NCBI GenBank assembly: GCA_000166095.1
Contig: CP002278.1
Coordinates: 570,001-602,000, forward strand
DNA length: 32,000 bases
Source of the DNA: Methanothermus fervidus DSM 2088
GTDB taxonomy: Archaea; Methanobacteriota; Methanobacteria; DSM-2088; Methanothermaceae
Direction of reading: 5' to 3'
Both the position numbers and the translations under genes were made by a program. This document shows, in pieces, positions 10,609-32,000 of this stretch (positions are counted from its first letter, which is position 1; each line of letters opens with the position of its first letter). The notes beneath the pieces were generated by a model, which worked only from the letters and a program-made list of their open reading frames with translations, did no database searches and was not told the origin of the DNA.

Positions 10609-10632
10609 TAATAAATCCTGGGGGCAAATCCT

Positions 10633-16570: not shown

Positions 16571-18223
16571 TTGAAAATTTTTGTAACTTGTGCACTGCCA
16601 TATGCAAATGGTCCATTACATCTTGGTCATTTACGATCAACCTATATTCCAGCAGACATATATTCAAGATATCAACGTATGGTTGGAAATGATGTATTAT
16701 TTGTTTGTGCAACAGATGAACATGGGACTCCAATAGCAGTTAAGGCAGAAAAAGAAGGAAAAGATCCATTAGAAATAACAACAAAATATTATAAGAAAAT
16801 AAAATCAGATTTAGATAAATGTGATATTTCATTTGATAATTTTTCAAGGACTAGCAGCGATATTCATTATAAAGTTGCACAAAATTTTTTCTTGAAATTG
16901 TATAAGAAAGGATACATTTATGAAAAAGAAATAAAACAATTCTATTGTACGAATTGTAAAAGGTTTTTACCTGATAGATATGTGGAAGGTATTTGTCCAT
17001 ACTGTGATTCTGAAGGTGCAAGAGGAGACCATTGTGAAGTATGTGGTAGACATCTAGAAGTTTTAGAACTTATAAAACCACGGTGTATATTATGTTCTGG
17101 AGAACCTGAAATAAGGAAATCAAAACATTATTTTTTTAAATTATCAAAATTTCAGAAGAAATTGAAGGAATGGGTTGAAAATAATGAAGAATTACCATCA
17201 AATGTCAAAAATTATACATTAGAATGGCTAAAGGAAGGATTAAATGATTGGATAATGACAAGAGATATGAAATGGGGAGTACCAGTTCCTCTTGAAGATG
17301 CTGAAGGAAAAGTTATATATGTTTGGGGGGAAGCATTCCTTGGATATATTTCCTCAGCTATTGAGTGGTCAAAGAAAAATAAAAAAGATTGGAAAGAATA
17401 TTGGGACAGTGGGGCCATACATTTCATTGGAAAAGATATAATATATCACCACACAATCTTTTGGCCTGCTATGTTAATGGCCTATGGTTGTAAACTTCCA
17501 AGGACTGTGATAGCTGGTGAATATTTATCATTAGAAGGAAAAAAGATGTCTACAAGTAAAAATTGGGTGGTTTGGGTCTCAGATTTTTTAAAGAGATTTG
17601 ATTCCGATCTTTTAAGGTATTATTTAACAATTAATGCTCCATTAACAAGAGACACAGATTTCTCTTGGGATGATTTCCAGAGAAGAGTAAATGATGAGCT
17701 TGCTGACATCCTTGGAAATTTCATCCATAGAGCTCTAATGTTCACTTATAGATTTTTTGATGCAAAAATACCAGAACCTTCAGAGTTTGGAGAGAAAGAT
17801 ATTGAATTTGAAGAAAGGATAAAAGAATCTCCAAAAATTGTTGGAAATTTCATAGAAAATTTTAAATTTAGAGATGGATTAATAGAGATAATGAAATTAG
17901 CAAGAGATGGTAATAAATACTTTAATGATCAAGAGCCGTGGAAAACATTCAAAGAAAATAAATATAAGGCTGCAACTTGCATATATTTATGTGACCAGGC
18001 TGTAAAAGCTATTGGAGTCTTAATAAAACCATATTTACCAAAAACTTCTTCAAATATTTTAAGCATGCTGAATCTAGATGATAATGTAAGATGGGAAGAT
18101 GCAAATGAATTTATAGAGCCAAATCATAAAATAAATAAACCTAAACCATTATTTTCAAAAATAAAATCAGAAGTAATTGAGAAAGAAAAAACCAAATTAA
18201 AAGAAAAGGTAAAAAATGAATGA
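16571..18223 (+). CDS. metG: methionine--tRNA ligase (core enzyme, no C-terminal appended domain)
   Basis: 550 aa. The TTG start follows AAGGAGGGGAT. It has the HIGH-type [11 protein letters not shown], a Zn knuckle ([18 protein letters not shown]...CILC) and the KMSKS-type KMSTSK. Confidence 0.95.
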
Positions 18224-19754
18224 AGAAGGATTAATAAGCAGAACAGAAAGATTACTTTCGGAAATAAAAAAAAGTAGCATTAAGGTAGATGACTTAAGGT
18301 CTTATGATAAAGCTTTTAAAATTTATAGAAAATTAAAGAGTACTCTTAATAAGCTTGAAAAAATTAAAAAAACAATGGAACTAAAGGGTTATAGAAGTCC
18401 ATATAGGTCCATAGCTAAATATTCAACTTACATTGAAGAACCTATTCATGAAGAGCCACATGAAATGGCTAGACATGCTAGATATTTCAGAATAAAAGCT
18501 TCTATAAGAAAAAACATATTAGACCGTGTTAATTCAGCTATAGCATCTCATAAAATTGCAATAAGTAACTTAGAGGAATACATAGAGTTAAAGTGTGTTA
18601 GATGTGGAAAAAGATTTAAAATATATGAAAAATGTGAATGTAATAGAGAAGATGAATATAAAGTGGTTCCAAATGAAAAAGGTATCCATAGAATAGAAAT
18701 AATTCCATATCTTCCTTTATCTGGAGATTACATGGTAAAAATATCTAAGTTAAGTAATTGGGCAAGAGAAGCTTTTAAAAAAATTGTACGTACGTTGAGA
18801 CATGAAAAGAGAGGCACGATAAAATCTACTTCTCTTGTCATAAGGGTGTTTGATGGAAAAAGATGGCTCAGAAAAAAAATCGTAATTAATGGTAGTTTTG
18901 AAGAATGTGAGAATAAATTGCGGAAAAAATATGGATCAAATTTACGTATAGAATTTATGCAATTTCATAGAAGAAAGGCAAGGATTATTGATGATAGATA
19001 CATTCGTAATGCACTTGCCTTAGGTTATACTTGTTTTTGTGAAAACAAGATAGAAAAATTAAAAAATGAGATATTTAACAGTGAAATGAAAAATCCTGAA
19101 TATTTTGAAGAATATTTAAGGATTATTAAAGATGTTGAGAGATCATTGTTATCACTGGATCCTGAAATTAGAGAGGAAATTAAAGAAGAGGAGATAAAGA
19201 AGGTTTTAAAAGAAAAAGGTTTTTTAAATGAAAATGAGGAACTCATAAAAGAAATTAGAGAAGATTTAAAAATTAAAAAAGAAATTGAAGAAGTATTTGT
19301 CAATGTCCCTATAACCTTATTATTGTGGGACATAGCTAATTATTATCTTTGCACATCATATGATCGAAGAACTAAACATTCTGGACCTTTTCCTGGCCTA
19401 CGACCAGTTCTAGATAGACATCAAGCAAAAATATTCAATGAATTTAACAAAAAAGCTGTTAAAATAATTAAGAAATATTTTATGGAGAAAATAGAGTACA
19501 TCCCTAACTTAAATGAAATAATCCTTGAAAATTTCAAAATAGAAAGGAAAATGAAAGGTCTTAGACTTAAAACAGATCCTTTTGCATTTGGGGCAGCCAT
19601 TGTTAACTTGAAGTCTGATATTGATATAGAAAAATGTTCTAAATTGTTTTCAACAACGCCTAAGAATATTAAAAGAGAAAAGAGAAACATAAAAATTATT
19701 ACAAAACCTTCATCAGACAAGGCTAAAAGATTCTTAGAGATTGTTAGAGGTTAG
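18216..19754 (+). CDS. conserved-looking archaeal hypothetical protein with a zinc-ribbon motif (possibly a DUF530-type family)
   Basis: 512-aa ORF overlapping the metG stop by 8 nt. It contains [16 protein letters not shown], a long Glu/Lys-rich helical insert, and [15 protein letters not shown] recognise no catalytic motif. The DUF assignment is from memory only. Confidence 0.45.
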
Positions 19755-19770
19755 AAAACAGGGAGGTAAA

Positions 19771-20238
19771 ATGGCAAGAAAAATACATGTTACAAAGCCA
19801 TTAACAATAAAAACAATAACAGAATTATTAGAAAAAAATCCAGACCTTGAAGAAATTACATGTCCTGCAAGTTTATATCGTCGAATATCTCCTAAATATA
19901 TTAAGGCCTTGAAAGAATTAGGTGTTAAAGTTAGAGCCACAAAAAGAGGAAGAGGAAGGCCCAGAAAATATTCAGAAAAGGACAAAGCGATGGTAAATAG
20001 ATTACTTAAAAAAGGCAAAACTCCAAAAGAAGTTTCTAAAATTATGAATATACCTCTAAAGACTGTGTATTACCTCAAAGGAAACTTAAAACTTAAAAGA
20101 GGTAAAAAACCAAAATACACGAAAGAAACAAGGTTAAAAGTTAAAAAGATGGCTAAAAAAGGAGTTAGTGCTAGAGAAATATCTAAAAAAATGAACATAC
20201 CTTTAAGAACTGTCTATTACATATTAAGGAGTGAGTAG
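19771..20238 (+). CDS. DNA-binding protein with two tandem Hin/resolvase-type HTH domains and an AT-hook
   Basis: The ATG at 19771 lies 3 nt after GGGAGGT, so the ORF-track TTG at 19741 is rejected; the product is 155 aa. GRPRKYSEKDKAMVNRLLKKGKTPKEVSKIMNIPLKTVYYL is duplicated as GKKPKYTKETRLKVKKMAKKGVSAREISKKMNIPLRTVYYI. Both copies resemble the Hin DNA-binding domain (GRPRAI...RLLEKG....IA..FGI.VSTLYRYF). Confidence 0.7.
   Translation: MARKIHVTKPLTIKTITELLEKNPDLEEITCPASLYRRISPKYIKALKELGVKVRATKRGRGRPRKYSEKDKAMVNRLLKKGKTPKEVSKIMNIPLKTVYYLKGNLKLKRGKKPKYTKETRLKVKKMAKKGVSAREISKKMNIPLRTVYYILRSE
19942..20226 (+). repeat. intragenic tandem duplication encoding two HTH modules (19942-20076 and 20095-20226)
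   Basis: About half of the aligned residues are identical between the two ~45-aa modules. The duplication is also visible at DNA level: atgaatatacctctaaagactgtgtattacctc versus atgaacatacctttaagaactgtctattacata. Confidence 0.75.
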
Positions 20239-21169
20239 TGATCAAATGTTACCCACATTATCTGCATTCATAGTATCGTTCTTAGCTACATACTTAATAA
20301 TGCCAAAATTGATTAAGAAGTTAAAAAATGCGGAAATTATAGGTAAAGACATACATAAGCCAACAAAACCACTTATTCCAGAAATGGGTGGTTTAGGTAT
20401 CTTATTAGGGTTTTTTTTAGGAGTTTCTATTGCTTATTTTTTATTACCTCATTATCATTTTTTATTGGCTTTAGTGGTTGTATTTTTTGTAGGGATTGTA
20501 GGTGTAATAGATGACCTTGTGAATTTATCTTGGAAAGAAAAAATATTTTTATTATTTTTTTCCTCTTTACCAGTTATCTTCACTTTCCCAAAAACAATTT
20601 TTTATTTAATCTTAATACCTTTAGCATTTATAGTGGTGCCCAATTTAACTAATATGTTAGCAGGGTTAAATGGTCTTGAATCTGGTTTAGGATCAATAGT
20701 AATGTTCTTTATAACAATTGTGTGTGTTATTTTAGGAAAATTTCATGTTACTCCAATATCTGCTGCAATGTTTGGGTCTTTATTTGCATTTTTACTCTAT
20801 AACAAATATCCAGCACGTATTTTTCCAGGAGATGTTGGAACATTGACAATAGGAGCATGTATTTGTGTTGTTGCATTTTTTGGAAATATAGAATTCATCG
20901 TTTTAATTATGCTAATGCCTTATATTATAGATGCCTCACTTAAGTTTTTTTCTGCTGGAATAATGGAAAGATCACAGCATAAACCAACAAAAGTTACAAA
21001 GGATGGATTACTTGTTCTTCCAAAAGAAAGAAATTTTAACTCACTTATTAGGCTGTTATTACTTAAAAAACCTATGAAAGAGAATGAAATTGTTAAAATA
21101 ATATGGGTAATAGAAATAATCTTTTGTATTCTCGCTGTTTTATTAACCTATGCTTATGATTTTGTTTAA
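20231..21169 (+). CDS. UDP-GlcNAc:dolichyl/polyprenyl-phosphate GlcNAc-1-phosphate transferase family (AglH/Alg7-type GT4)
   Basis: A polytopic membrane protein. It has VIDDLVN (DD motif) and NLTNMLAGLNGLESG, which matches the Alg7/AglH-type NxxNxLAGxNGLExG rather than the MraY NxxDGxDGL version. The start is GTG 20231 or ATG 20246. Confidence 0.8.
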   Translation: MSSDQMLPTLSAFIVSFLATYLIMPKLIKKLKNAEIIGKDIHKPTKPLIPEMGGLGILLGFFLGVSIAYFLLPHYHFLLALVVVFFVGIVGVIDDLVNLSWKEKIFLLFFSSLPVIFTFPKTIFYLILIPLAFIVVPNLTNMLAGLNGLESGLGSIVMFFITIVCVILGKFHVTPISAAMFGSLFAFLLYNKYPARIFPGDVGTLTIGACICVVAFFGNIEFIVLIMLMPYIIDASLKFFSAGIMERSQHKPTKVTKDGLLVLPKERNFNSLIRLLLLKKPMKENEIVKIIWVIEIIFCILAVLLTYAYDFV

Positions 21170-21239: not shown

Positions 21240-21989
21240 CTACTTTTTGATAATTCCCCCCCCCGCAACAATACTGCGAAGCATTTTTGCAAAACTATTT
21301 ATCTTTCTCAAGCCTGCCTCCTTTGAATATTTTATACATTTATCAAAGGATTTTTCTGCATGCTTATACCAACCTCTTCTCAAATTTCTAATTGAATATA
21401 AAAAATATAGGTAAGAGCATGCTTTCTCATCACCTATTGCTTCAGCAATGTTGATAGCCTCTTCCAATGGTAAAATTGATGAATTCCTGTAAAGTTCTAA
21501 ATATTCTTCTGGGATTTTGAGTTCTGAAACTAAATCATCGGCAATTTCTTTTAATTTATCCAATTTAACTTCAATTTTTTTAGAAGAGTCTTCTGGGAAT
21601 TCTTTATACAAACCTCTAATTTTTGAAGCTTCCATTGCTTTTTTTACTCTTTCAACCTCACGAATTTTTTCTAAGACCCTATCCCTATCTTCTCCTTTTA
21701 GATTTTTAAGTAATTGTTTATACAATTCTAGACTCTCATCTACTTTTTTCTGAGTAAAATATATATCAGCTAATGATTCTTGGATGTAATTTTTATATAT
21801 GTTGTCATTAATTTCCTCTGCAATGTCACGTGCTTTAAGGAGATTATCTATAGCTTTCTCAAATTTTTCATCATCAAAGTAATGTTTACTTAATTCACAT
21901 AAAATTTCCATTTCTCTTCTCTTAATTTTAGTTAATTCATCTAAAAGACTTTCAATACTTTTTTTCTTGCCAAATAACTTGCCAATCAT
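21240..21989 (-). CDS. helical-repeat (TPR/MIT-like) protein, partner of the KaiC-like ATPase; function unknown
   Basis: 249-aa ORF whose ATG overlaps the stop of the upstream ATPase gene (ATGA). Predicted all-helical repeats include FEKAIDNLLKARDIAEEIND and ESLELYKQLLKNLKGEDRDRVLEKIREVERVKK. The N-terminus is MIGKLFGKKKS. I recognise no enzymatic motif. Confidence 0.6.
   Translation of the reverse strand: MIGKLFGKKKSIESLLDELTKIKRREMEILCELSKHYFDDEKFEKAIDNLLKARDIAEEINDNIYKNYIQESLADIYFTQKKVDESLELYKQLLKNLKGEDRDRVLEKIREVERVKKAMEASKIRGLYKEFPEDSSKKIEVKLDKLKEIADDLVSELKIPEEYLELYRNSSILPLEEAINIAEAIGDEKACSYLYFLYSIRNLRRGWYKHAEKSFDKCIKYSKEAGLRKINSFAKMLRSIVAGGGIIKK
21256..21264. repeat. C9/G9 homopolymer inside the 3' end of the 249-aa gene
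   Basis: There are nine consecutive C on the + strand, which encode Gly-Gly-Gly on the - strand. I noticed no G:C run of comparable length elsewhere while reading the window. Confidence 0.95.
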
Positions 21990-22666
21990 TTTATTACCAC
22001 GCCTTCTTTTGTTACTTTATATTTCCAACGTTTTTTAAATATTTCAGATGCTAAAGCTTCAACTTCTAACTCGTCGCCAGTTATGTGAATGATATTGTCG
22101 CACAATGCTTTTATCATGTTTTCACTCTTAGTTGCTGCTGAGCCTTCGTGATAACAAATCATGCTTGTGCCTTTAGCAGCTTTCATCCTCATGTTGTATG
22201 TGTACAACATTCTTAAGATACGTTTTTCATCGTTAAAAAGAATTAAATATGATAAAGAATCCATCACAACTCTGACATTTGATTTTACTTTTTGTAAAAT
22301 TAATGATAATTTTAAAATTAAACCAGTTATGTCATTTACTGATACAGAGAAATGATTAGGAAATGATAGTTTTTTTGGTTTTGAAGGTAAAATATCTATA
22401 ACAAATAATTTTCCTTCATTAAAAAAGGTTTCAAAATTGAAACCAAAATCCTTACTACTTTCTGCAATATTTTTCCAGGGAGATTCTGTATTTATCAAAA
22501 TACCTGATTCTCCTGCCTCAAGACCTGAATACAAAAAATGCCATGAGATTAATGTTTTTCCAGTTTTTGGAGGACCATATAATAATGTAGTAGTGCCTCT
22601 TGGAATTAACCCCCCTTCATGTAAAGAATTCATTCCCTGAATACCTATAGGAACTTTGTCAACCAT
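21986..22666 (-). CDS. single-domain KaiC/RecA-superfamily ATPase (COG0467/FlaH-like)
   Basis: I place the start at ATG 22666, 5 nt after AAGGTGGT, giving 226 aa. It has IGIQGMNSLHEGGLIPRGTTTLLYGPPKTGKT (Walker A at 22553-22576), the catalytic-Glu context GILINTES, and Walker B VRVVMDSLS. Confidence 0.85.
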   Translation of the reverse strand: MVDKVPIGIQGMNSLHEGGLIPRGTTTLLYGPPKTGKTLISWHFLYSGLEAGESGILINTESPWKNIAESSKDFGFNFETFFNEGKLFVIDILPSKPKKLSFPNHFSVSVNDITGLILKLSLILQKVKSNVRVVMDSLSYLILFNDEKRILRMLYTYNMRMKAAKGTSMICYHEGSAATKSENMIKALCDNIIHITGDELEVEALASEIFKKRWKYKVTKEGVVIK

Positions 22667-22711
22667 GTAAACCACCTTAAGTAATAATATAATGTAAGAT
22701 ACCATAGATTG

Positions 22712-22723
22712 TACATGCATGTA
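22712..22723. promoter_or_regulatory. perfect 12-bp palindrome TACATGCATGTA upstream of the KaiC-like operon
   Basis: It is self-complementary over 12/12 positions. It lies 46-57 nt upstream of the ATG at 22666 and abuts an AAATAAATAC TATA-like element on the - strand (22721-22730). Confidence 0.3.
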
Positions 22724-22928
22724 TTTATTTGAACAGAGTTTTAAAGATTTGATCTTTGCTTGTGAAATATTGTAGTACACATATAAAAAATTTTCATGCC
22801 GGGGGGAGAAATAAAATGTTATATTGTCTTTACTTAGGATCAGTGTTAATGTCAAAGAATAATTTTAAAACCATAATTATTTTAATTTTTCAAAACGGGA
22901 AAAATTTGATTCAAAAAAAATTTGAGAG

Positions 22929-23564
22929 ATGAGTATGAAAAATAAAAAAATGATTACTATTATTTTAAAAAAATTAAAAGAATTATATCCTGAGAAAATT
23001 AAACAACGAGATCCTTATAAAGTGTTGATAGAAACTATTTTATCACAACGTACAAAAGACGAAAATACAAAAAAAGCATCAAAAAAATTATTCTCTAAAT
23101 ATGATACCATAGAAAAAATTGCTAATGCACAAGAAAAAGATCTTGAAAAATTAATAAAATGTGTAGGATTCTATAGAGTTAAAGCCAAAAGAATTAAGAA
23201 AATATCTAAAATTTTAATAAATAAATATGATGGTAAAGTACCTAAAAATTTAAAAGAACTTCTAAAATTGCCAGGAGTTGGAAGAAAAACTGCTAATTGT
23301 GTGTTAGTTTATGGATTTAATGAGGATGCAATACCTGTAGATACACATGTTCATAGAGTTGCAAATAGAATCGGATTAGTTAATACAAAAACTCCTGAAG
23401 AAACAGAGAAAACCCTCAGGAAAATAATACCAAGAGATTATTGGAAAGAAGTTAACAAATTGTTTGTAGAATTTGGAAAGAATATATGTAAGCCAACTAA
23501 TCCTAAACATGAAAAATGTCCAATAAAAAAATTTTGTAAGTATGTGGAAAATCTAGAAGTTTAA
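22929..23564 (+). CDS. nth: endonuclease III-family DNA glycosylase/AP lyase (HhH-GPD)
   Basis: 211 aa. It has ILSQRTKDE, the HhH LPGVGRKTANCVL with the catalytic Lys, VDTHVHRV with the Asp, and a C-terminal cluster loop C-x6-H-x2-C-x5-C. ATG 22935 is an alternative start. Confidence 0.9.
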   Translation: MSMKNKKMITIILKKLKELYPEKIKQRDPYKVLIETILSQRTKDENTKKASKKLFSKYDTIEKIANAQEKDLEKLIKCVGFYRVKAKRIKKISKILINKYDGKVPKNLKELLKLPGVGRKTANCVLVYGFNEDAIPVDTHVHRVANRIGLVNTKTPEETEKTLRKIIPRDYWKEVNKLFVEFGKNICKPTNPKHEKCPIKKFCKYVENLEV

Positions 23565-25750
23565 GGTTTCAAAGCTGCTATCTTTTTTGCAAAAGATTCT
23601 AAAACTTTTTTAGAAAGACCTTCCACATATTTCATAGAACCAACGCCTTCATGTCCGCCACCGTCTATTGATGCTTCAGGTATTTCTTTTTTAAGTTCAG
23701 AAATAACTTTATTTAAGTTAAAACCCATTTCTTTGTATACAGTTTCTGTAGACCTAACAACAGCAAAATCAGGTCCATAAGCTAATGTAACAATCGGAGT
23801 GTTTTCACCTTTTTTTTGTACAAAATGATCATGCACAAAACCGCATGTTTTACCTGGAGCAGGAAACGTAAATTTATGTGAATATTTTTCAACGTCTAAA
23901 ACATTTAAAATAATACCATTTGGTAATTTACGTGATTTTACATGTGGTAAAGCAGCTTTTAATTGTTCTTTAACTTTTCGTTTATATTCATTGTACACGA
24001 TTTCCACTAATTTTCGTTGTTTATCAAGACCTGAAAATCCTAATAAGGTATCAATTATACCCCTACCATCTCTAAATCTCAAATAGAATGCTTCAAAATC
24101 TAAACATGCTGCAATTTTTTCAAGATCTTTTTTACTATATCCCTTGGATTCTGCAAGTTTTATGTATCTTTCTGCTTCTAAAGATTGTGATCGGTCACCT
24201 ACAGCTGCTATTCCTGGTATATGTAAAATCATGTCTTTTATTTTTGGATTAATCATTTTTGAGATTTCAGATGCTAATGCCCCAGCAGGTATTTCTGAAT
24301 CTCCCCCAACTAAATATGGATTAACATGTACATCCACATAATCATCTACTATAACTTTACCATCAACAACTTCTCCTGGATAATGATGATCCACTACCAC
24401 TGTTTCTAAGTCATATACTTTTGTTTTCATTAAAGAAACCAAGTCTTCCTCTGTGGATCCATTATCTAGTAGAATTAGCAATGGTAACTTTTGGTCGTAC
24501 CTTTCACAATCTTCCAATGCCATAGATAAATCTTTAACTACGTCTTCCAATTCATAAAATGGTGCCTTACTAGGTGATCTTCTGAAACAATGCCATTCTG
24601 CTTCTGGATCTGGATTTATTTTGCGTATTAATGGTAACACTGCTTTTTCAATTGCTACGCCAGCACATATTCCATCTGCATCTGCATGATGTCTAACCAA
24701 TATGGGTCTACCATCAAATATTGCCCGTCTTATTGTTCTTGCTGCATCAACAAGTTTTGGATGAAGTTTATTAAGAACATCGCTCTTTACATATAACTCT
24801 ATGTATTGAGGTTCAGCCCATTTTTCAATAGCTTCATTTATTAATTCTCTTACACGTGTAGCATCTTTACCAATTAATCTTTCCATTGATGCTACTTCTA
24901 TTTGCACTTTACCTCCATGCTGATTAACTGTGCCAATTACTTCAACAATATTACCTGTTTTGATGTGTGGATAGGCTCTTATACCTGGTTCATCAAATGC
25001 AGCTGCCCAAACAGTGTCAGTTTCATCTGCTATTGTGAAGAGTGTAGGTCCTGAAGTCTGCTGTACTTGTATAACTTCCCCCACAACCCTCACAGTTTTA
25101 CCTATTAATTTTTCATTGATATCTTTTGCTTTTGTCCTTTCAATTTCTTTTTTGACTTTAACTATCTCATAAGGTTTAGTAAGGGTTACTGGTTGAAGGT
25201 CAATCTCTCCTTTATGTGGCCTTACATCCAAAACTTTCACAAATACTTTTTGCCCTATTTCATAATTTTGAGGTATTACATCTTTCATTAATCCCCAAAC
25301 ACGATCATTAAGTTTTACAAACACTCCATATCTTTCTATTCTTCCAACTTCTCCTCTATATATTTTTTTAGCTTCAACATCCTCTATATCACATGCAGGA
25401 TGTAAAACATATACTGAAGTCTTTTTTTTACAGTCTGAACAATATTCTAAGCCAGGTTTAATAATTTTTCCACATTTTGGACATACGTTTATTTCACCTT
25501 TGCCTTTACATTTTTTACAAGTTTCTCGCACTTCTATTTCACCTTTACCATCGCATACATCACAGGGAATCCCATGTTCTTCGTCTAAATCAAATTTTTC
25601 TAAAGTATTTTTTGGGATTCCTTTAACATGTTCTTTCACGTTTTCAAAGTCTTTATAACCAGTTCCACCACATGCTTCACAAATCTTATAGTTTACTACA
25701 ATATAACCTTTCCCTTTACATTCTGGACATTTTCTTATCAAAACTTTCAC
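23561..25750 (-). CDS. multidomain DHH/DHHA1 phosphoesterase (RecJ/HAN-like nuclease) with DnaJ-type Zn fingers, S1 and OB domains
   Basis: 729 aa. There are four CxxCxGxG repeats (CPECKGKG, CEACGGTG, CDVCDGKG, CKKCKGKG) plus CPKCG...CSDC. An S1-like segment (YRGEVGRIERYGVFVKL) and an OB-like segment (VRVVGEVIQVQQTSGPTLFTI.DETD) follow. DHH motifs are VRHHADADGICAG, LLDNGS and VVVDHHYP, and the DHHA1 motif is GGGHEGVGS. The GTG at 25750 is embedded in GGAGGTGA, so TTG 25741 (5 nt after that SD) is a plausible true start. Confidence 0.8.
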   Translation of the reverse strand: MKVLIRKCPECKGKGYIVVNYKICEACGGTGYKDFENVKEHVKGIPKNTLEKFDLDEEHGIPCDVCDGKGEIEVRETCKKCKGKGEINVCPKCGKIIKPGLEYCSDCKKKTSVYVLHPACDIEDVEAKKIYRGEVGRIERYGVFVKLNDRVWGLMKDVIPQNYEIGQKVFVKVLDVRPHKGEIDLQPVTLTKPYEIVKVKKEIERTKAKDINEKLIGKTVRVVGEVIQVQQTSGPTLFTIADETDTVWAAAFDEPGIRAYPHIKTGNIVEVIGTVNQHGGKVQIEVASMERLIGKDATRVRELINEAIEKWAEPQYIELYVKSDVLNKLHPKLVDAARTIRRAIFDGRPILVRHHADADGICAGVAIEKAVLPLIRKINPDPEAEWHCFRRSPSKAPFYELEDVVKDLSMALEDCERYDQKLPLLILLDNGSTEEDLVSLMKTKVYDLETVVVDHHYPGEVVDGKVIVDDYVDVHVNPYLVGGDSEIPAGALASEISKMINPKIKDMILHIPGIAAVGDRSQSLEAERYIKLAESKGYSKKDLEKIAACLDFEAFYLRFRDGRGIIDTLLGFSGLDKQRKLVEIVYNEYKRKVKEQLKAALPHVKSRKLPNGIILNVLDVEKYSHKFTFPAPGKTCGFVHDHFVQKKGENTPIVTLAYGPDFAVVRSTETVYKEMGFNLNKVISELKKEIPEASIDGGGHEGVGSMKYVEGLSKKVLESFAKKIAALKP

Positions 25751-25765
25751 CTCCAGAAATACAAA

Positions 25766-25776
25766 TTTTTATAAAA
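25766..25776. promoter_or_regulatory. palindromic TATA-like element TTTTTATAAAA in the 62-bp divergent spacer
   Basis: It is the only strong TATA-like element between the DHH gene (-) and the MFS gene (+). The core TTTTATAAAA is self-complementary. It ends 36 nt before ATG 25813. Confidence 0.3.
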
Positions 25777-25812
25777 GTGAATTTGGTATATACTGTTGAG
25801 AGAGGTGTAGAC

Positions 25813-26976
25813 ATGAATGACGCCAAGAAATTCATAATCCTCATGGGGATCGTAAGTTTATTTGCAGATATGACCTATGAAGGTGCAAAAGGAATTGCAG
25901 GACAATATCTAGCACTTTTAGGTGCAAGTGCTATAATTGTAGGATTTACTGCTGGATTTGGTGAATTGGCAGGATATGCTGTCAGATTTTTATCAGGATA
26001 TTTAAGTGATAAAACATTAAAACATTGGAGTATAACTTTTGTAGGATATTTCATAAATTTGTTTGCAGTGCCTCTTTTAGCATTTGTTAATAGATGGGAA
26101 CTTGCAACAATGCTTCTCATAGCAGAAAGAATAGGAAAAGGCATTAGAACTCCACCTAGAGATGCAATGTTATCTTATGCTACTGCACATACAGGAAGGG
26201 GATGGGGCTTTGGTATACATGAAGCTTTGGATCAAATAGGCGCTGTTCTTGGACCTCTTATCATGTTTACAGTTTTATATTTAAAAGGAAGTTACAAAAC
26301 ATGTTTTATTATTTTAGCATTGCCAGCTATATTATGTATCTCAATTTTAATAATTTCTTATTTTTTATACCCAAAACCTGAAAAACTTGAGATTGAAACA
26401 AAAATTGGTATAAAATCAATGAGTAAAGCATATTGGATATATGTAGCTGCAGCTTCACTAATAGCTCTTGGATTTGCGGATTTTCCACTAATAGCATATC
26501 ACATAAAACAAAATTTTATATTTTCAGATGAAATTATTCCGCTTTTGTTTAGTTTAGCAATGGCTATCGATGGTATATCAGCTTTAATATTTGGAAGAAT
26601 GTTTGATAAATTTGGAATAGTAATTTTAGCTGTATCCATACTTCTATCATCGTTTTTTGCACCTTTAACATTTCTTGGAGGGAGTATTTTAGTAATTATT
26701 GGAATATGTCTTTGGGGAATGGGCATGGGTGTTAATGAATCAATAATGAGATCTATGGTTACAATATTAAGTCCGAAAGAAAAAAGAGGATCAGCATTTG
26801 GAACATTTCACATGATTTTTGGTATTTCATGGTTTATAGGAAGTTTCATCATGGGGTTTTTATATGAGATTTCACTGGTTATTTTAGCCCTCTTTTCTGT
26901 AGCCACTCAGTTATCTTCTCTTATATTCATATATATCTTATATAAGATGAGTTACTCCACAGAGCTTCCTTCATAG
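25813..26976 (+). CDS. MFS-type membrane transporter
   Basis: The ATG at 25813 lies 5 nt after AGGTG, giving 387 aa. It has about 11-12 hydrophobic segments, and the loop motif ERIGKGIRTPPRDA resembles the MFS motif A region. The substrate is unknown. Confidence 0.75.
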   Translation: MNDAKKFIILMGIVSLFADMTYEGAKGIAGQYLALLGASAIIVGFTAGFGELAGYAVRFLSGYLSDKTLKHWSITFVGYFINLFAVPLLAFVNRWELATMLLIAERIGKGIRTPPRDAMLSYATAHTGRGWGFGIHEALDQIGAVLGPLIMFTVLYLKGSYKTCFIILALPAILCISILIISYFLYPKPEKLEIETKIGIKSMSKAYWIYVAAASLIALGFADFPLIAYHIKQNFIFSDEIIPLLFSLAMAIDGISALIFGRMFDKFGIVILAVSILLSSFFAPLTFLGGSILVIIGICLWGMGMGVNESIMRSMVTILSPKEKRGSAFGTFHMIFGISWFIGSFIMGFLYEISLVILALFSVATQLSSLIFIYILYKMSYSTELPS

Positions 26977-27010
26977 AGAAAACTAGCCTAAAGACAGTAT
27001 TCCTAGAGAT

Positions 27011-27046
27011 TTTCTTGTCGATAAAGTTAAAAATTTTAACAAGAAA
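27011..27046. terminator. nested inverted repeats between convergent genes
   Basis: TTTCTTGT (27011-27018) pairs with ACAAGAAA (27039-27046). An inner GTTAAAA-a-TTTTAAC palindrome occupies 27026-27040. The element lies between the MFS stop (26976) and the secreted-protein stop (27051). Confidence 0.35.
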
Positions 27047-27050
27047 TAAT

Positions 27051-28562
27051 CTACCAAATGTCTACATAATTTCCACGGCTTGTATATCTAACGACTTTAA
27101 CAAATGTTCCTGGAGCAATATATTTATTTATTTCAACTATTTGTGGATTGCAATTGCCTATACTATATTTCAACTGTAAATTGATAGGCACGTAACTTTT
27201 TTTAACATTCGTTAGAATGAGAGTCGTACTCACTGCATAACTACTTGGATAATCACCTAAAATTATAACTTTCTTTTCTCCTGGGTTTAAGGTTAGTGAA
27301 TATTCATTATAAAAGATTTTTGAACCATTTATTGTGTCTGTATAAACACTTACATAATATTTAATGGTTGTTGGTGTTGAACCTTTGTTGGTTATGGTTA
27401 TTGAAAACTTAGATATATTTTCATTACATTTAGATACCCACTTTATTAAATTTAGGATAATGTTAGGTATCTGAGGATTTAATTCAGGATGTGGACCTAA
27501 TAATGCAACTCTTCCATTACCATAATTATCAACTATAATTGCGTTCCCTGAATATCTATCTAAATAAGTTGCAAGTGCTGTTGATCCAGTCATTACTGGA
27601 CCATTCCAGAACCATAAAGTTAAACAACCATTTAAATCTAAAATTTCTTTACCAATTTCAGTAATTTTCACAGTAATGTTACCAATATAAGATGTTGCCT
27701 GTGATGTTACTCCAGCTAATCCCCAACCATTGTAATAATCATCTTCTGTTACTACTAATGATGAGGCTGCAAATGCTCCAGCACAAATACCAATATAACC
27801 TTTCCCACTATAAACAAAATTTTTAATTGCAGCTTCTGAGATGTTTTCATTTTTAATGTAAGATCTTCCTGAGATTCCAGCAGGCATTATCAAAACATCA
27901 AAATCTCTAAGAGTGTCATAGGTTATTTTATCTATCTTAGAGAATGTAACTATAAATTTTTCAGTGTTTGTTGTTGAAAGACATTGGACTATCCCATTGA
28001 CACTTTCATCTAAAGCATCAGTACCATTATAAATAGCCACATTGATAATGGGAGTTAATGTGACATAATCTGGCAACTTTTTCTCTTTATCATATAGTAT
28101 GCATATATTAGCAAAGAGGTAAAGTAATGTGTGGTATGATATCTTCCCCAACTTACTGTTAGCATAATTTGGAGCTCTGGAATTATTTTCAACAAATGAT
28201 TGAATTCTTTTGGCAATATTTATATATTCCATTTTTGATAATGTGCCTTGTATGCATGCCCCCTGTGGATTTATAGGACTAGAAACATTGAAACTTTTTA
28301 TTTTAGTTTCTTCATTTTTGCCATTGTATAAACTTACTACACATTTTGTGCTCAAATATAAATATTGTTCAGATGTAACATTTACTTCTGAAATGTTAAT
28401 TGTCTTAGGCACCTTATGCATGTTTTCTATACTATATTTCACACTATATGATGCATTTATTACATCTTTAATCATGAATTCATCATTGTTTGCAGCTGTA
28501 ACTGAACTAACAGAACATACAATCAGCAAAATACAAAACACTATTACTGCTTTTAAATTCAT
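27051..28562 (-). CDS. secreted cell-wall-associated protein: signal peptide, 2 pseudomurein-binding repeats, GATase1-like (BPL_N-like) domain, C-terminal beta-sandwich
   Basis: 503 aa with SD GGTGGG upstream and signal peptide MNLKAVIVFCILLIVCSVSSVTA/ANN. The two PMBR-like segments are IKDVINASYSVKYSIENMHKVPKTINI....EQYLYL and YINIAKRIQSFVENNSRAPNYANS.LGKISYHTLLYLF. The central domain has DVLIMPAG...GKGYIGICAGAFAAS...LLGPHPE. The C-terminal part is CARDB-like (ITITNKGSTPTTIKYYVSVY...LNPGEKKVI). Confidence 0.8.
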   Translation of the reverse strand: MNLKAVIVFCILLIVCSVSSVTAANNDEFMIKDVINASYSVKYSIENMHKVPKTINISEVNVTSEQYLYLSTKCVVSLYNGKNEETKIKSFNVSSPINPQGACIQGTLSKMEYINIAKRIQSFVENNSRAPNYANSKLGKISYHTLLYLFANICILYDKEKKLPDYVTLTPIINVAIYNGTDALDESVNGIVQCLSTTNTEKFIVTFSKIDKITYDTLRDFDVLIMPAGISGRSYIKNENISEAAIKNFVYSGKGYIGICAGAFAASSLVVTEDDYYNGWGLAGVTSQATSYIGNITVKITEIGKEILDLNGCLTLWFWNGPVMTGSTALATYLDRYSGNAIIVDNYGNGRVALLGPHPELNPQIPNIILNLIKWVSKCNENISKFSITITNKGSTPTTIKYYVSVYTDTINGSKIFYNEYSLTLNPGEKKVIILGDYPSSYAVSTTLILTNVKKSYVPINLQLKYSIGNCNPQIVEINKYIAPGTFVKVVRYTSRGNYVDIW

Positions 28563-28602
28563 GTTTTTCCCACCTCGGTGAAAAAATAAAGTTTTTTCTA
28601 CT

Positions 28603-28612
28603 AATATAAAAA
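28603..28612 (-). promoter_or_regulatory. TATA-like box TTTTTATATT for the secreted-protein gene
   Basis: The - strand reads TTTTTATATT, ending 40 nt upstream of the ATG at 28562. The SD GGTGGG lies between them. Confidence 0.4.
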
Positions 28613-28637
28613 CTTTTCCTTATATTAGATAGAAAAA

Positions 28638-28645
28638 TTTATAAT
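28638..28645 (+). promoter_or_regulatory. TATA-like box TTTATAAT with purine-rich BRE-like flank for the ABC operon
   Basis: AGAAAAATTTATAAT lies 61 nt upstream of ATG 28706. This leaves room for a ~35-nt leader that contains GGAGG. Confidence 0.4.
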
Positions 28646-28705
28646 GTAAAAATTGTGGATATTTTTATTCAAAGATTATGCTTGTTCAAAAATGGAGGCA
28701 TAAAT

Positions 28706-29653
28706 ATGGATAAGAAAATATTAGTGGTAATTGCAATAATAGCAGTGATAATAGCTGCCTATGGAATTTACAACTACACAGCACAGCCAAAAGGAGAAGT
28801 GGTCATTGGACATTTAAAAAGTGATCATCATGCAGCATTGTATGTTGCATTGGCAAAAGGGATGTTCGAGAAGGAAGGGATAAAAGTTAAAACAATAGAA
28901 TTCAAAGCTGGACCAGAACTTATGAGGGCTATTGCATCAAAACAAATAGATATTGGGTATGTAGGAACACCACCTGCTGTAACATCAATATCTAAAGGTG
29001 TACCTGTAAAAATAATTGCAGCTGTTAATGAAGAAGGTTCAGGAATTGTAGTTAAAAAAGGAAGTGGAATTCATAGCATCAGTGATCTTAAAGGAAAAAC
29101 CGTTGCAATACCAATGAAAGGTAGTATTCAGGATGTTTTATTAAAAATGGTACTAAAACAACATAACATAGATCCAAAGGATGTAAACATTGTTGAAATG
29201 GATGTACCTATGATGCCAAAAGCTTTACAGGCAGGTAGAATAGATGCATTTATTGCATGGGAACCTTATGTTACAATGGCAAAAATGAAAGGTTATGGAG
29301 ATGTACTAATGTATTCAAGTGAAATATGGAAGGACCATCCATGTTGTGTTGTAATAGCTAGAGACGATTTCATAAATAACAATCCAGAAATTGTCAAAAA
29401 ATTCTTGAAAGTTCATGTAGAAGCAACAAATTACATAATAGCACATAAAGATGAAGTTGCATCAATAATTTCCAAAAAATTAGGAACACCAGTAGATGTT
29501 GAGAAAGAAGCCATGACCCATATCAAATATACATCAGTGCCATCTCAGGACAATATAATGAAATTTGTTAAGATATTGAAACAAATAGGTTACATCAAAA
29601 AAGATCTTACAAAAGAAGATATTTTTGACTTAAGATATCTTCCTTCTTCCTAA
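28706..29653 (+). CDS. ABC transporter substrate-binding protein, NMT1/SsuA/TauA-like (NitT/TauT family)
   Basis: The ATG at 28706 follows GGAGG, giving 315 aa. An N-terminal membrane anchor (ILVVIAIIAVIIAAYGIY) is present without a lipobox Cys. The body (IGHLKSDHHAALYVA, DIGYVGTPPA, AFIAWEPY) resembles the sulfonate/nitrate/HMP-type SBP fold. Confidence 0.75.
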   Translation: MDKKILVVIAIIAVIIAAYGIYNYTAQPKGEVVIGHLKSDHHAALYVALAKGMFEKEGIKVKTIEFKAGPELMRAIASKQIDIGYVGTPPAVTSISKGVPVKIIAAVNEEGSGIVVKKGSGIHSISDLKGKTVAIPMKGSIQDVLLKMVLKQHNIDPKDVNIVEMDVPMMPKALQAGRIDAFIAWEPYVTMAKMKGYGDVLMYSSEIWKDHPCCVVIARDDFINNNPEIVKKFLKVHVEATNYIIAHKDEVASIISKKLGTPVDVEKEAMTHIKYTSVPSQDNIMKFVKILKQIGYIKKDLTKEDIFDLRYLPSS

Positions 29654-29689
29654 TTTTTTATTTTTAAGCATTTTTTTGGAGGTTTGTTA

Positions 29690-30442
29690 GTGAAAAAATA
29701 TTTAGAGATGACTTTGAGCCCATTGTTGGTAATAATTTTATGGTCATTGTTAACTTTCACAAATATAATACCTAATTATATCTTACCAAACCCAGGTGAA
29801 GTTCTTATTTCATTTTATACTCTAATAAAAAATGGTGAATTATTTGTCCATGCATATAATACGTTAATGAGAGTCGTTCTAGGATTTTTAATAGCTTCAG
29901 CAATTGCAATACCATTAGGCATTGGAATAGGATGGTCAGAAACAATTGAAAATATTTTTAATCCCCTCATACAAATATTAAGACCCATACCTCCCTTAGC
30001 TTGGGTACCTTTCGCATTAATATGGTTTGGTATTGGTCTTAAATCAGAAGTGTTTATAATATTTATCGGTTCTTTTTTCCCAATATTGCTTAATACAGTT
30101 GACGCTGTTAAGGGCGTTGAGAAAGTTTTCATCGAAAGTGCATATGTCTTAGGAGCCAATGAACAACAAATATTAACTAAAGTAGTATTACCAGGTTCCC
30201 TACCAGGAATTGTATTAGGTATGAGAGTAGGATTTGGTATAGGGTTTATGTGTACTGTTGCAGCAGAGATGATAGCCGCAAAATCAGGATTGGGTTATTT
30301 GATCATGGATTCTATGCGGCTCATGGACACTGGAACTATGCTTGTAGGTATCATAACAATAGGAATACTAGGTTTTTTAATCGACACTATATTTGCAAAA
30401 ATTGAAAAAAGAGAATTTAAATGGAGAGGAAAAACAACATGA
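29690..30442 (+). CDS. ABC transporter permease (NitT/TauT family)
   Basis: The GTG at 29690 lies 6 nt after GGAGGT; the ORF-track TTG at 29684 abuts the SD. It has six hydrophobic segments and an EAA-like loop, ESAYVLGANEQQILTKVVLPGSLPGI. Confidence 0.85.
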   Translation: MKKYLEMTLSPLLVIILWSLLTFTNIIPNYILPNPGEVLISFYTLIKNGELFVHAYNTLMRVVLGFLIASAIAIPLGIGIGWSETIENIFNPLIQILRPIPPLAWVPFALIWFGIGLKSEVFIIFIGSFFPILLNTVDAVKGVEKVFIESAYVLGANEQQILTKVVLPGSLPGIVLGMRVGFGIGFMCTVAAEMIAAKSGLGYLIMDSMRLMDTGTMLVGIITIGILGFLIDTIFAKIEKREFKWRGKTT

Positions 30443-31194
30443 TCATTGTTAAGAACCTTTCAAAGAAATTTGGAAACGTTAAAGTTCTAGATAATATAAA
30501 TTTAAAAATAAAAGATGGTGAATTTTTCTGCATTGTAGGACCTTCAGGATGTGGAAAAACAACATTGTTAAGAATTATCGCTGGATTAGAAAAACCTACG
30601 TCTGGAGAAGTTTATATCAACAGTGAAAAGGTAGGAAATCATAAATCTAGCTGTAGTATGGTATTTCAGCAATATGCATTATTTCCATGGAGAACTGTGC
30701 TAGAAAATGTAATGTTTCCATTAGAAATTCAGGGAATATCTGAAAGTAAGAGACGTAAAATAGCCGAAGAATATCTTAAGCTTGTGGATCTACAAGATTT
30801 CAAGGATGCATACCCTTATGAATTGTCAGGCGGTATGAAACAAAGAGTTGCAATCGTTAGAGCCTTAGTCAATGATCCTAAAGTATTATTGATGGATGAA
30901 CCATTTGCAGCTTTAGACATGCAGACAAGAAATTTCTTACAAAAAGAATTATCATATATCTGGGAAAAGACTTGTAAAACAATTGTTTTTGTTACACATA
31001 ATATTGATGAAGCTGTTTTTCTTGGGGACAGGGTAGCTGTTATGAGTGCAAGACCTGGAAGAATATTAAAAATATTTGAAGTAAATCTAAAAAGACCAAG
31101 GGACAGATTAGATGAAAAATTTTTGGAAATTAGAGGTAAAATACTTGATATTCTTGAAAAAGAAGTTAAGCGATCGATTGAAATAAAAATATAG
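30439..31194 (+). CDS. ABC transporter ATP-binding protein (NitT/TauT family)
   Basis: The ATG at 30439 overlaps the permease stop (ATGA) and lies 8 nt after GGAGAGGA. It has Walker A GPSGCGKTT, the Q-loop VFQQYALFPW, the signature LSGGMKQR, Walker B LLMDEPF and the H-loop THN. Confidence 0.93.
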   Translation: MIIVKNLSKKFGNVKVLDNINLKIKDGEFFCIVGPSGCGKTTLLRIIAGLEKPTSGEVYINSEKVGNHKSSCSMVFQQYALFPWRTVLENVMFPLEIQGISESKRRKIAEEYLKLVDLQDFKDAYPYELSGGMKQRVAIVRALVNDPKVLLMDEPFAALDMQTRNFLQKELSYIWEKTCKTIVFVTHNIDEAVFLGDRVAVMSARPGRILKIFEVNLKRPRDRLDEKFLEIRGKILDILEKEVKRSIEIKI

Positions 31195-31200
31195 TTAAAT

Positions 31201-31228
31201 TTGTTATTTTTGTTATTTACAGCTTTTT
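31201..31228 (+). terminator. oligo-T tracts / tandem TTGTTATTT x2 after the ABC operon
   Basis: ttgttattt-ttgttattt followed by agcttttt gives two T5 runs within 35 nt of the stop at 31194. Confidence 0.4.
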
Positions 31229-31242
31229 ATTCTTGATTAAAC

Positions 31243-31250
31243 AATATATA
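31243..31250 (+). promoter_or_regulatory. TATA-like box AATATATA upstream of the RHH-like gene
   Basis: It lies 55 nt upstream of TTG 31306 and about 43 nt upstream of the GGAGAG SD. Its position argues against the ORF-track start at 31276. Confidence 0.35.
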
Positions 31251-31305
31251 GAATAATCACCAAAAAATATTTTATTTGAGAATACAAATATTTGGAGAGA
31301 TTTTC

Positions 31306-31803
31306 TTGAAAAGATTAACGGTTGCTGTGCCAAAAAAATGGCGTAACAGACTTATAAAAGTCATCAATTTAGAACATGAACTTTGTACTAAGAAAAAAAA
31401 ATTAGAAATTCTAAAAAAGGGTGAAGATGCTTTAAAAATACCTTGTGGTTGGTTATCTATTTCGCAACTTGTAGATTATATAGTACAGCAGTATGTTACA
31501 AGGAAAGATATTGATCTGGATTTTTTCAAAACAAAAAATAAAGATACATTATCACTGAATGGAAAGTTAAGTATAACATTTAATGATGATACATATAAGA
31601 AAGTTCAAAATTTTAGGAAAAGACTTGCTCGTAAAGGCAGATGTATCTCATTTGCAGAGGTAGTCAGATCTGCAATAAAATCTTGGTTTGAATCGGAACG
31701 TCCAATTTATCATTTAAAAAAAGAGATTGAAAACGTGGAAAAATTAATAAAAAAATATGAAAGTAAAAAAGAAAAGAGAATGGAAATGTGGCACAGACCT
31801 TAA
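31306..31803 (+). CDS. putative tandem ribbon-helix-helix (CopG/Arc-like) DNA-binding protein
   Basis: The TTG at 31306 lies 6 nt after GGAGAG, giving 165 aa. Two beta-alpha-alpha modules are present: KRLTVAVPKKWRNRLIKV...ISQLVDYIVQQY and KLSITFNDDTYKKVQNFRKRLARKGRCISFAEVVRSAIKSWF. A Lys/Glu-rich helical tail follows. Confidence 0.5.
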   Translation: MKRLTVAVPKKWRNRLIKVINLEHELCTKKKKLEILKKGEDALKIPCGWLSISQLVDYIVQQYVTRKDIDLDFFKTKNKDTLSLNGKLSITFNDDTYKKVQNFRKRLARKGRCISFAEVVRSAIKSWFESERPIYHLKKEIENVEKLIKKYESKKEKRMEMWHRP

Positions 31804-31832
31804 TCACCAAAAATTAACTATGATGGTCACAT

Positions 31833-32000
31833 ATGTGTGGGATTGCAGGTTTTTCTGGAAAAAATGCAAAAAAAATTGTTGAAAAAATGCTTAAAATTTT
31901 AAGGCATCGAGGACCTGATGCAACAGGAATTTATTATGATAGCAAAGTAAAAATTATTTATGATAAAAAAGTGGAGGAGAAAGAAGCTCCGCCTTCCAGC
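31833..32000 (+). CDS. class II (Ntn) glutamine amidotransferase, asparagine synthase-like; 3' end cut by window edge
   Basis: This ORF is not in the ORF track because no stop lies within the window. The translation is MCGIAGFSGKNAKKIVEKMLKILRHRGPDATGIYYD... The N-terminal Met-Cys nucleophile and the HRGPD motif are typical of AsnB-type enzymes. Confidence 0.7.
   Translation, partial: MCGIAGFSGKNAKKIVEKMLKILRHRGPDATGIYYDSKVKIIYDKKVEEKEAPPSS

Follow-up and report, generated by a model that had tools for sequence, protein, structure and literature searches.

A predicted exported, pseudomurein-binding protein with a class I glutamine amidotransferase fold is a candidate cell-wall hydrolase in Methanothermus fervidus

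We examined a 32,000-nucleotide stretch of the Methanothermus fervidus DSM 2088 genome (contig CP002278.1, positions 570,001 to 602,000 of the forward strand), which we call the window and number from its first letter. The subject of this study is a gene on the minus strand of the window, at 27051-28562, which consists of 503 codons followed by a stop codon (27051-27053). It was identified from a list of open reading frames (ORFs) and their translations, and its 503-aa product corresponds exactly or near-exactly to a recorded protein (P0001). From the N-terminus to the C-terminus, the protein carries a signal-peptide-like segment, a unit of pseudomurein-binding repeats (PMBRs), a core with the fold of class I glutamine amidotransferases (GATases) and an all-beta domain. 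A sequence-only reading of the window had proposed that this gene encodes an extracellular, pseudomurein-anchored enzyme that acts on the cell wall. The ORF exists, and all motif and codon coordinates given in that reading were exact on translation. The gene can credibly be interpreted as encoding a cell-wall hydrolase of modular design, whose catalytic fold would be new to such a role.

Domain architecture of the 503-aa protein

The core of the protein spans aa ~170-378 (27429-28055; all features of the gene lie on the minus strand) and was delimited with Pfam, AlphaFold2 and Foldseek. It matches the Pfam family BPL_N (PF09825) in two stretches and scores 50.5 bits (cut-off 24.2; E = 1.7e-13), and the C-terminal H-P-E region maps to positions 182-224 of the BPL_N profile. 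Below threshold, the core also matched LBP_M, ThuA and DJ-1/PfpI, all of which belong to the GATase1-like superfamily. Four motifs were located by translation: the strand VAIYNG at aa 175, DVLIMPAG at aa 222, GYIGICAGAF at aa 255 and LLGPHPE at aa 354. A BPL_N-type, GATase1-like domain had been named as the closest family from the pattern of these motifs, and the Pfam match above cut-off agrees with that assignment. The definition of BPL_N derives from the domain at the N-terminus of biotin-protein ligases of eukaryotes, and no function has been assigned to the family. Homologues of the 503-aa protein carry the JGI label of a BPL_N/COG4285-type "glutamine amidotransferase-like uncharacterized protein".

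We built an AlphaFold2 model on a 35-sequence alignment. The predicted local distance difference test score (pLDDT) was above 90 over aa ~170-380. When Foldseek was used to compare the model with the PDB, the best matches were HisH (E = 1.3e-9; TM-score 0.75 normalised to HisH), GatD, which is peptidoglycan-amidating, and PdxT, with E-values from 1e-9 to 1e-7. Further matches were to ThuA and to the GATase-like domain of GH42. The BPL_N match, the confident model and the matches to HisH, GatD and PdxT all agree with the class I fold that the motifs had suggested. HisH, PdxT and GatD are cytoplasmic and act with the synthase partners HisF, PdxS and MurT, respectively, whereas the 503-aa protein is putatively exported and has no partner domain. 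The two also differ two residues past G-x-C-x-G, where the family studied here has Tyr or Phe in place of the Gln that we take to be typical of glutamine-binding GATases.

The putative nucleophile is Cys260 (codon 27783-27785), which lies in the motif G-I-C-A-G and was assigned by conservation and model topology. The H-P-E motif contributes His358 (codon 27489-27491), one of three histidines in the whole protein, and Glu360 (codon 27483-27485). Near-invariant alignment columns also define an oxyanion-strand motif, P227-A228-G229 (27876-27884), for which the family consensus is P-G-G. In all 35 of the aligned homologues, C260, H358, P359, E360, G229, G258, G262 and G356 are invariant. The C-H-E triad is present in 168 of the 192 family representatives that we fetched, and the exceptions are mostly fragments. 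Most family members keep the three residues on which the sequence-only reading had built its proposal. Given the invariance or near-invariance of P-G-G, G-x-C-x-G and H-P-E, we conclude that the predicted catalytic apparatus of a triad GATase is under purifying selection.

The topology of the model is consistent with this assignment. Strand 255-259, Cys260 and helix 261-266 form a nucleophile elbow, and strand 350-355 is followed directly by His358-Pro-Glu360 and then by helix 366-377. Conservation and predicted topology together support a putative juxtaposition of Cys260, His358 and Glu360. Sequence searches of the PDB, made with the single protein and with a family profile, returned alignments of the nucleophile elbow to DJ-1, PfpI and PdxT that ended before the His/Glu region. 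In these alignments Cys260 falls on the Cys that serves as nucleophile in YhbO, DJ-1D and PdxT. An hhalign comparison with E. coli HisH placed DVLIMPAG on LPGVG and GICAG on GICLG, at a non-significant E-value of 0.22.

We considered several other assignments for the core and rejected them. Membership in DJ-1/PfpI (Peptidase C56) was rejected on a score of 21.8 bits, below the cut-off of 26.6, on the Ala that follows Cys260, where a Cys-His dyad of the C56 type would have its His, and on the conserved His at position 358. The domain of the pseudomurein endoisopeptidase (Pei) family (Peptidase C71/Transglut_core) is absent from the 503-aa protein and present in fused relatives only, and the protein has no Peptidase C39 domain. 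A glutaminase subunit of a synthase does not fit the signal-like N-terminus and the PMBRs. We found no synthase domain in the protein or in the neighbouring genes, in agreement with the earlier argument that no synthase partner is involved.

The N-terminal 23 residues (28494-28562) resemble a signal peptide by inspection and by hydrophobicity. They begin with MNLK, which gives a positive n-region, continue with a hydrophobic core and end in a VTA/A site. The Kyte-Doolittle mean is 3.3 over a 14-residue window that starts at aa 5. Equivalent hydrophobic N-termini are found in nearly all close homologues. These features agree with the cleavable-looking signal peptide described previously and suggest that the protein is exported by a Sec-type route.

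Two canonical PMBRs precede the core. Repeat 1 is at aa 108-135 (28158-28241) and repeat 2 at aa 138-168 (28059-28151); with a family-built hidden Markov model they scored 40.7 and 15.6 bits, respectively. The Pfam profile for PMBR (PF09373) gave 42.1 bits on the whole protein (cut-off 24.9) and 51.9 bits on aa 100-170 alone. The sequence-only reading had placed the PMBR pattern at aa ~30-160. PMBRs are indeed present, but both repeats that Pfam detects are confined to aa 108-168, and the segment before them is a divergent module.

This first module, at aa ~30-105 (28248-28475), was recognised by homology. Residues 30-105 had no Pfam match. In a group of PMBR-transglutaminase proteins (P0024-P0028), the region ahead of the two canonical PMBRs was 43-45% identical to these residues (E ~1e-10). 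In these relatives the repeating unit is ~140 aa long and comprises one divergent and two canonical motifs. The 503-aa protein has exactly one such three-motif pseudomurein-binding (PMB) unit, at aa ~30-168, in which the third motif is visible by homology alone. Three motifs are the reported minimum for binding to pseudomurein (PMC2989375). The protein may bind the wall through this unit.

The C-terminal residues 379-503 (27054-27428) form an orphan all-beta domain that we describe from its model. Modelled on its own, the domain has nine strands, with a pLDDT of 73 and a predicted TM-score of 0.70. It had been called a CARDB-like beta-sandwich. The all-beta character holds and a beta-sandwich is reasonable, but the isolated domain matched neither CARDB (PF07705) nor any other Pfam family, even when the E-value limit was relaxed to 10. 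No homologue of this segment was found among family members or in a collection of 5.8 billion proteins, and its fold matches were weak and of a generic Ig-like or beta-sandwich type (E >= 5e-3). We therefore rejected the CARDB assignment.

Family members and their fusions to lysin domains

A HMMER search with the core alone returned 1004 clusters (at 50% identity) at E <= 1e-3, 23 of them at E <= 1e-30. We also scanned genomes with a search that depended on one motif and kept the best 80 loci. The best 56 of these, and the lower-ranked L076, were from Methanobacterium, Methanobacteriaceae or Methanovirga, with 34-46% identity and several loci per genome. The remaining loci of the 80 were 22-31% identical and bacterial; they came from Planctomycetota, Verrucomicrobiota and a small number of further phyla. 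A single-protein scan of close-relative genomes gave no match. About 60% of the family representatives have a hydrophobic N-terminus.

Fusions of the GATase-like domain to PMBRs recur among these relatives. In a set of 185 GATase-bearing sequences, the order is GATase-PMBR in 40 and PMBR-GATase in four (the window protein, P0045, P0050 and P0056). PMBR fusion therefore exists in both domain orders. A further example of the PMBR-GATase order is found at L130.

A subgroup of the family has no leader and begins directly at the GATase strand, M-x-x-V-L-I-Y-N-G. The motifs LPGGDGG, GTCAGAY and GPHPEL are invariant in this subgroup (alignment A2). Here the GATase-like domain is followed by PMBRs and then by a thiol peptidase. 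The third domain is Transglut_core in P0076, P0080 and P0104 and Peptidase_C39 in P0072, P0092 and P0075; other leaderless members have a divergent NC(V/C)D...H...D core. The leaderless GATase-PMBR-Transglut_core/C39 set comprises these six proteins together with P0073, P0097, P0101, P0111, P0120, P0126 and the product of a gene at 2306-3625 (+) on contig L113.

Several comparisons link the non-GATase part of these proteins to known pseudomurein lysins. Seven of ten leaderless representatives matched PHROG 37889 ("pseudomurein endoisopeptidase"); those with a C39 domain had endolysin PHROG matches as well. Residues 199-499 of P0080, its non-GATase part, are 44% identical (E = 9e-77) to a PMBR protein of Methanobacterium virus Drs3. 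The L113 protein is 439 aa long. Its residues 229-434 match genes annotated as Pei in the viruses PhiF1 and MSTV1 and in three viruses of uncultivated status from Methanobacteriales, and its residues 226-410 match PHROG 37889 (E = 3.6e-11). On the 5.9-kb, virus-like L113 contig, the fusion gene is flanked by a phage-type GIY-YIG/HNH homing endonuclease and by a 105-aa ORF. The latter is 39% identical (E = 2e-23) to an ORF in the vicinity of the gene for the C39 lysin on the IMG/VR viral contig L087. The closest relatives of the lysin-type GATase domains are those of the secreted, PMBR-type proteins, with up to 52-53% identity; identity to the domain of the 503-aa protein is 30-43%.

In bifunctional bacterial endolysins, two different catalytic domains that flank a wall-binding module are a standard design. 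The order GATase-PMBR-peptidase appears to be a pseudomurein lysin design with two catalytic domains and, apparently, one that has not been described. Because the sister fusions share this two-domain lysin layout, they provide strong guilt-by-association evidence that the GATase-like domain acts on pseudomurein.

The viral contigs also hold lysins of another type. At 9974-10744 (+) on L087 and 1997-2737 (+) on L088 are genes for 246-256-aa viral lysins with PMB-like repeats and a C39 domain. The N-terminus of the L087 lysin matches PHROG 37889 and its C-terminus matches endolysin PHROGs; the gene follows tail-like genes of 910 and 798 aa. Both are PeiR-type lysins of uncultivated methanogen viruses.

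The known pseudomurein-cleaving enzymes show both likenesses to the 503-aa protein and differences from it. PeiW and PeiP (Peptidase C71, PHROG 37889) likewise combine PMBR repeats with a thiol-nucleophile domain and are placed at the wall, and sister copies of the catalytic domain of the 503-aa protein are fused to an enzyme of the Pei type. However, PeiW and PeiP have a papain/transglutaminase fold with a Cys-His-Asp triad, whereas the 503-aa protein has the class I GATase alpha/beta fold with Cys-His-Glu. They are leaderless and prophage-encoded, whereas the 503-aa protein has a signal-peptide-like N-terminus and a chromosomal gene. The bond cut by PeiW and PeiP is Ala-epsilon-Lys. PeiR and PMBR-C39-like proteins represent a second pseudomurein lysin fold with PMBR-like repeats, and they too have fusion counterparts, in the GATase-PMBR-C39 proteins named above; the fold and triad of PeiR differ from those of the 503-aa protein.

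In the accessible literature, PeiW/PeiP and PeiR are the only enzymes listed as cleaving pseudomurein, and a BPL_N-type domain is not mentioned. The literature likewise contains nothing on prokaryotic secreted BPL_N/COG4285 members or on pseudomurein together with an amidotransferase. The earlier statement that this type of enzyme had not been described is consistent with these sources.

Genomic context, host lineage and strain variation

The neighbours of the gene are a major facilitator superfamily (MFS) transporter, an NMT1-type ATP-binding cassette (ABC) uptake system, an HhH-GPD glycosylase and a RecJ-like protein of 729 aa. This last protein, encoded at 23561-25750 on the minus strand, has CxxC zinc-ribbon repeats at its N-terminus and also contains an OB fold and a DHH domain. 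Of 59 Methanobacteriaceae loci with a GATase-PMBR gene, 8 have a RecJ-like gene with 60-62% identity at a distance of 2-3 kb (L081, L082, L002-L004, L006, L011 and L039), and the best-scoring matches are among these 8. This shared neighbour indicates that the gene is a chromosomal positional orthologue and therefore not prophage cargo. Because synteny with the RecJ-like, HhH-GPD and MFS genes is conserved, we rejected a prophage origin, and the earlier description of the protein as host-encoded is borne out by the synteny of its gene with Methanobacterium orthologues.

In four of the RecJ-linked loci (L002-L004 and L081) a second paralogue lies in tandem, and some pairs of paralogues are convergent or divergent. 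We also looked for Pei-like genes near the family members with PMBR-free transglutaminase-core queries. Such a gene, host-encoded, lies within 6 kb in 7 of the 59 Methanobacteriaceae loci (~10%), and in L084 it is immediately upstream. Besides L084, the loci named for this neighbour are L024, L036, L038, L048 and L054.

Two elements read from the sequence lie 5' of the gene. The first is a Shine-Dalgarno-like GAGGTG (28571-28576), 8 nt from the ATG, and the second is an archaeal TATA-box-like element, TTTATATT (28603-28610), ~45 nt from the ATG, which would serve as promoter. With a TATA-like box and a ribosome-binding site of its own, the gene looks like an independently expressed archaeal unit. 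An antisense ORF of 123 aa, initiated with TTG, lies inside the 5' part of the gene at 28210-28581 (+) and is probably spurious, given the AT-rich sequence. The 5' end of the MFS transporter ORF (25672-26976, plus strand) lies within an overlap with the RecJ-like gene. Since the Pfam match of this ORF starts only at aa 60, and since the corresponding gene call on contig L001 is 387 aa long, the true start is probably downstream of the listed one.

The methionyl-tRNA synthetase gene of the window (16571-18223, plus strand) was used to place the host. Its product has 550 aa, whereas the listed full-length relatives have ~650-700 aa and nearly all carry a C-terminal tRNA-binding domain (PF01588) that is missing here. 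The synthetase is at most 71% identical to any recorded protein, and the named top matches are nearly all from Methanobacterium, Methanobacteriaceae or Methanothermobacter. This pattern indicates a divergent, deep-branching member of the pseudomurein-making Methanobacteriales. Downstream, a run of three genes at 18216-21169 (+) encodes DUF530 (751 bits), a double helix-turn-helix protein and an MraY-like member of glycosyltransferase family 4. This run may be linked to the synthesis of cell-envelope precursors.

Window positions 21497-32000 are 99.5% identical over 10.5 kb to contig L001 (Logan DRR667206_33), the only recorded contig, and the window is a strain variant of that contig. Within the gene there are five differences from the sister strain, two non-synonymous and three synonymous, with no frameshift or stop codon. 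The non-synonymous differences are Ala228 (GCT, 27879-27881), which is Gly in the sister strain, and Gly284 (codon 27711-27713), which is Arg there. The first of these falls on the central residue of the P-G-G oxyanion strand, for which 178 of 182 family sequences have Gly and 3 of 182 have Ala.

Proposed function and alternative explanations

We assign a probability of about 0.5 to the interpretation that the protein is a wall-directed hydrolase. The wall-hydrolase role put forward in the sequence-only reading is favoured by the architecture, the conserved motifs, the lineage of the host and the sister fusions to PMBR and lysin domains; it is weakened by distant members outside any wall context and by the generic nature of PMBRs as anchors. 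If the interpretation holds, the protein would be a thiol amidohydrolase that is exported by its Sec-type signal peptide and that the three-motif PMB unit anchors to the sacculus. With His358 and Glu360 as its activators, Cys260 would then attack an amide carbonyl of a pseudomurein peptide. The P-(G/A)-G oxyanion strand would stabilise the attack, and a thioester acyl-enzyme intermediate would form and be hydrolysed. The bond attacked, in the stem or the cross-bridge of pseudomurein, would be of the peptide or isopeptide type, and the protein would act as a wall-remodelling or autolytic enzyme.

Known Cys-His-Glu enzymes of the class I GATase fold hydrolyse glutamine or gamma-glutamyl amides. 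Gamma-glutamyl hydrolase and PuuD, of family C26, share the superfamily fold, the Cys-His-Glu triad and the G-x-C-x-G ... H-P-E layout, and they hydrolyse gamma-glutamyl amides or isopeptides without a synthase partner. The animal gamma-glutamyl hydrolase is secreted or lysosomal. Unlike the 503-aa protein, C26 enzymes have no wall-binding domain. Because the known enzymes of this fold act on such amides, a gamma-glutamyl bond (Glu-gamma-Ala, or gamma-Glu attached to Lys) is our preferred guess for the target, although we put the odds against it. Such a target would fit pseudomurein, which has Glu-gamma-Ala and gamma-Glu-Lys bonds (PMC10117817).

A wider form of the proposal is that the BPL_N-type fold represents a third, structurally distinct pseudomurein-cleaving class. 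This class would be specific for a gamma-glutamyl isopeptide bond that PeiW, PeiP and PeiR leave uncut. It would serve Methanobacteriales as a secreted, wall-anchored autolysin or wall remodeller, and it would be the second catalytic domain of bifunctional GATase-PMBR-Pei lysins in uncultivated methanogen viruses or proviruses. We regard this wider form as possible and doubtful.

Several observations weigh against a wall-directed hydrolase. PMBR is a generic anchor that is also present in the S-layer protein MTH719, and 141 of the 185 GATase-bearing sequences have no PMBR. Many secreted members without PMBR are from Planctomycetota and Verrucomicrobiota, and distant members of the family are clearly not wall enzymes. 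The family is suggested to be patchy, since among the best 80 loci it occurs almost only in Methanobacterium-like genomes and not in all pseudomurein genera. The adjoining genes are transporters and housekeeping genes and do not form a wall operon. For the likeness to family C26, hhalign gave no meaningful alignment with E. coli PuuD, and the 503-aa protein had no Peptidase_C26 (PF07722) match at E <= 1. The Ala228 allele may also be less active.

Viral sequences supply further points on the same side. Isolated methanogen viruses carry Pei without a GATase domain, and the GATase domain of the 503-aa protein had no match in GenBank phages or IMG/VR. Distant (~24% identity), leaderless, single-domain members of 212 aa, with the motifs intact, are found on viral contigs. 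In IMG/VR these members (L089-L098) have the motifs VPGGF, GICMGAY and CHPE, belong to phages with ~36-39% GC and look like a phage auxiliary metabolic gene. One of them, the L095 gene at 9986-10624 (+), lies between the large and small subunits of ribonucleotide reductase, ThyX and thioredoxin, 5 kb from a lysozyme gene. The fold clearly also serves chemistry away from the wall.

These same observations bear on an alternative in which the protein is an exoenzyme tethered to the wall that acts on soluble or foreign substrates. It could be a glutaminase, a hydrolase of gamma-glutamyl compounds, a peptidase or a DJ-1-like deglycase, with a role in nitrogen scavenging or detoxification. That PMBRs anchor non-lytic proteins such as MTH719, that most members, including those of Planctomycetota and Verrucomicrobiota, have signal-like N-termini without PMBR, and that distant leaderless viral members sit in nucleotide-metabolism modules would all be expected if this were so. 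The position of the gene also fits, with an MFS transporter on one side and an ABC uptake system on the other. However, a tethered exoenzyme leaves unexplained why sister domains with an invariant triad occur in Pei-type lysins, between or ahead of PMBRs, and why PMBR fusion arose in both domain orders. The Pei-like neighbours in 7 of 59 loci also speak against it. We judge this alternative unlikely.

A wall location is equally what a pseudomurein transpeptidase or cross-linker would require. In such an enzyme, the Cys thioester would be resolved by an amine (the epsilon- or alpha-NH2 of Lys) to form the gamma-glutamyl-lysine cross-bridge, and established enzymology permits transfer from a Cys-His-Glu acyl-enzyme, which may extend to this case. 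The cross-linking enzyme is unassigned, and the role is "postulated" for transglutaminases (PMC10117817). An essential cross-linker should be universal among producers of pseudomurein, but the family has the restricted distribution described above and often occurs as several paralogues. Moreover, the presence of the domain in leaderless, lysin-type proteins speaks for cleavage over synthesis, and in the window the gene is not linked to genes of wall synthesis. These points make a cross-linker quite improbable.

More improbable still is that the Ala228 allele encodes an impaired or non-catalytic surface protein with a structural or adhesive role: Ala stands where nearly all family members and the sister strain have Gly, and the orphan beta-sandwich is of a type common in adhesin-like surface proteins, but three other family members have Ala at 228, Cys260, His358, Glu360 and the remaining glycines are intact, and the differences from the sister strain leave an uninterrupted frame with more synonymous than non-synonymous changes.

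A wall-directed hydrolase would bear on a part of methanogen biology for which few enzymes are available. How methanogens open, remodel and recycle the pseudomurein sacculus is essentially unknown, and the characterised enzymes that cleave it (PeiW, PeiP and PeiR) are all virus-derived. Surveys have found no archaeal counterparts of the bacterial cross-linking and recycling enzymes, and those for pseudomurein are unassigned (PMC10117817). A 2024 review describes archaeal wall hydrolases as "still very mysterious" (PMC10791045). If our interpretation is correct, a host-encoded, exported and wall-anchored enzyme would be a concrete candidate for part of this missing machinery, and the lysins of methanogens would have a second bond specificity. 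Such an enzyme would also be of practical use in the lysis of Methanobacteriales, for protoplasting, genetics and permeabilisation for fluorescence in situ hybridisation, and among anti-methanogen enzymes in ruminants.

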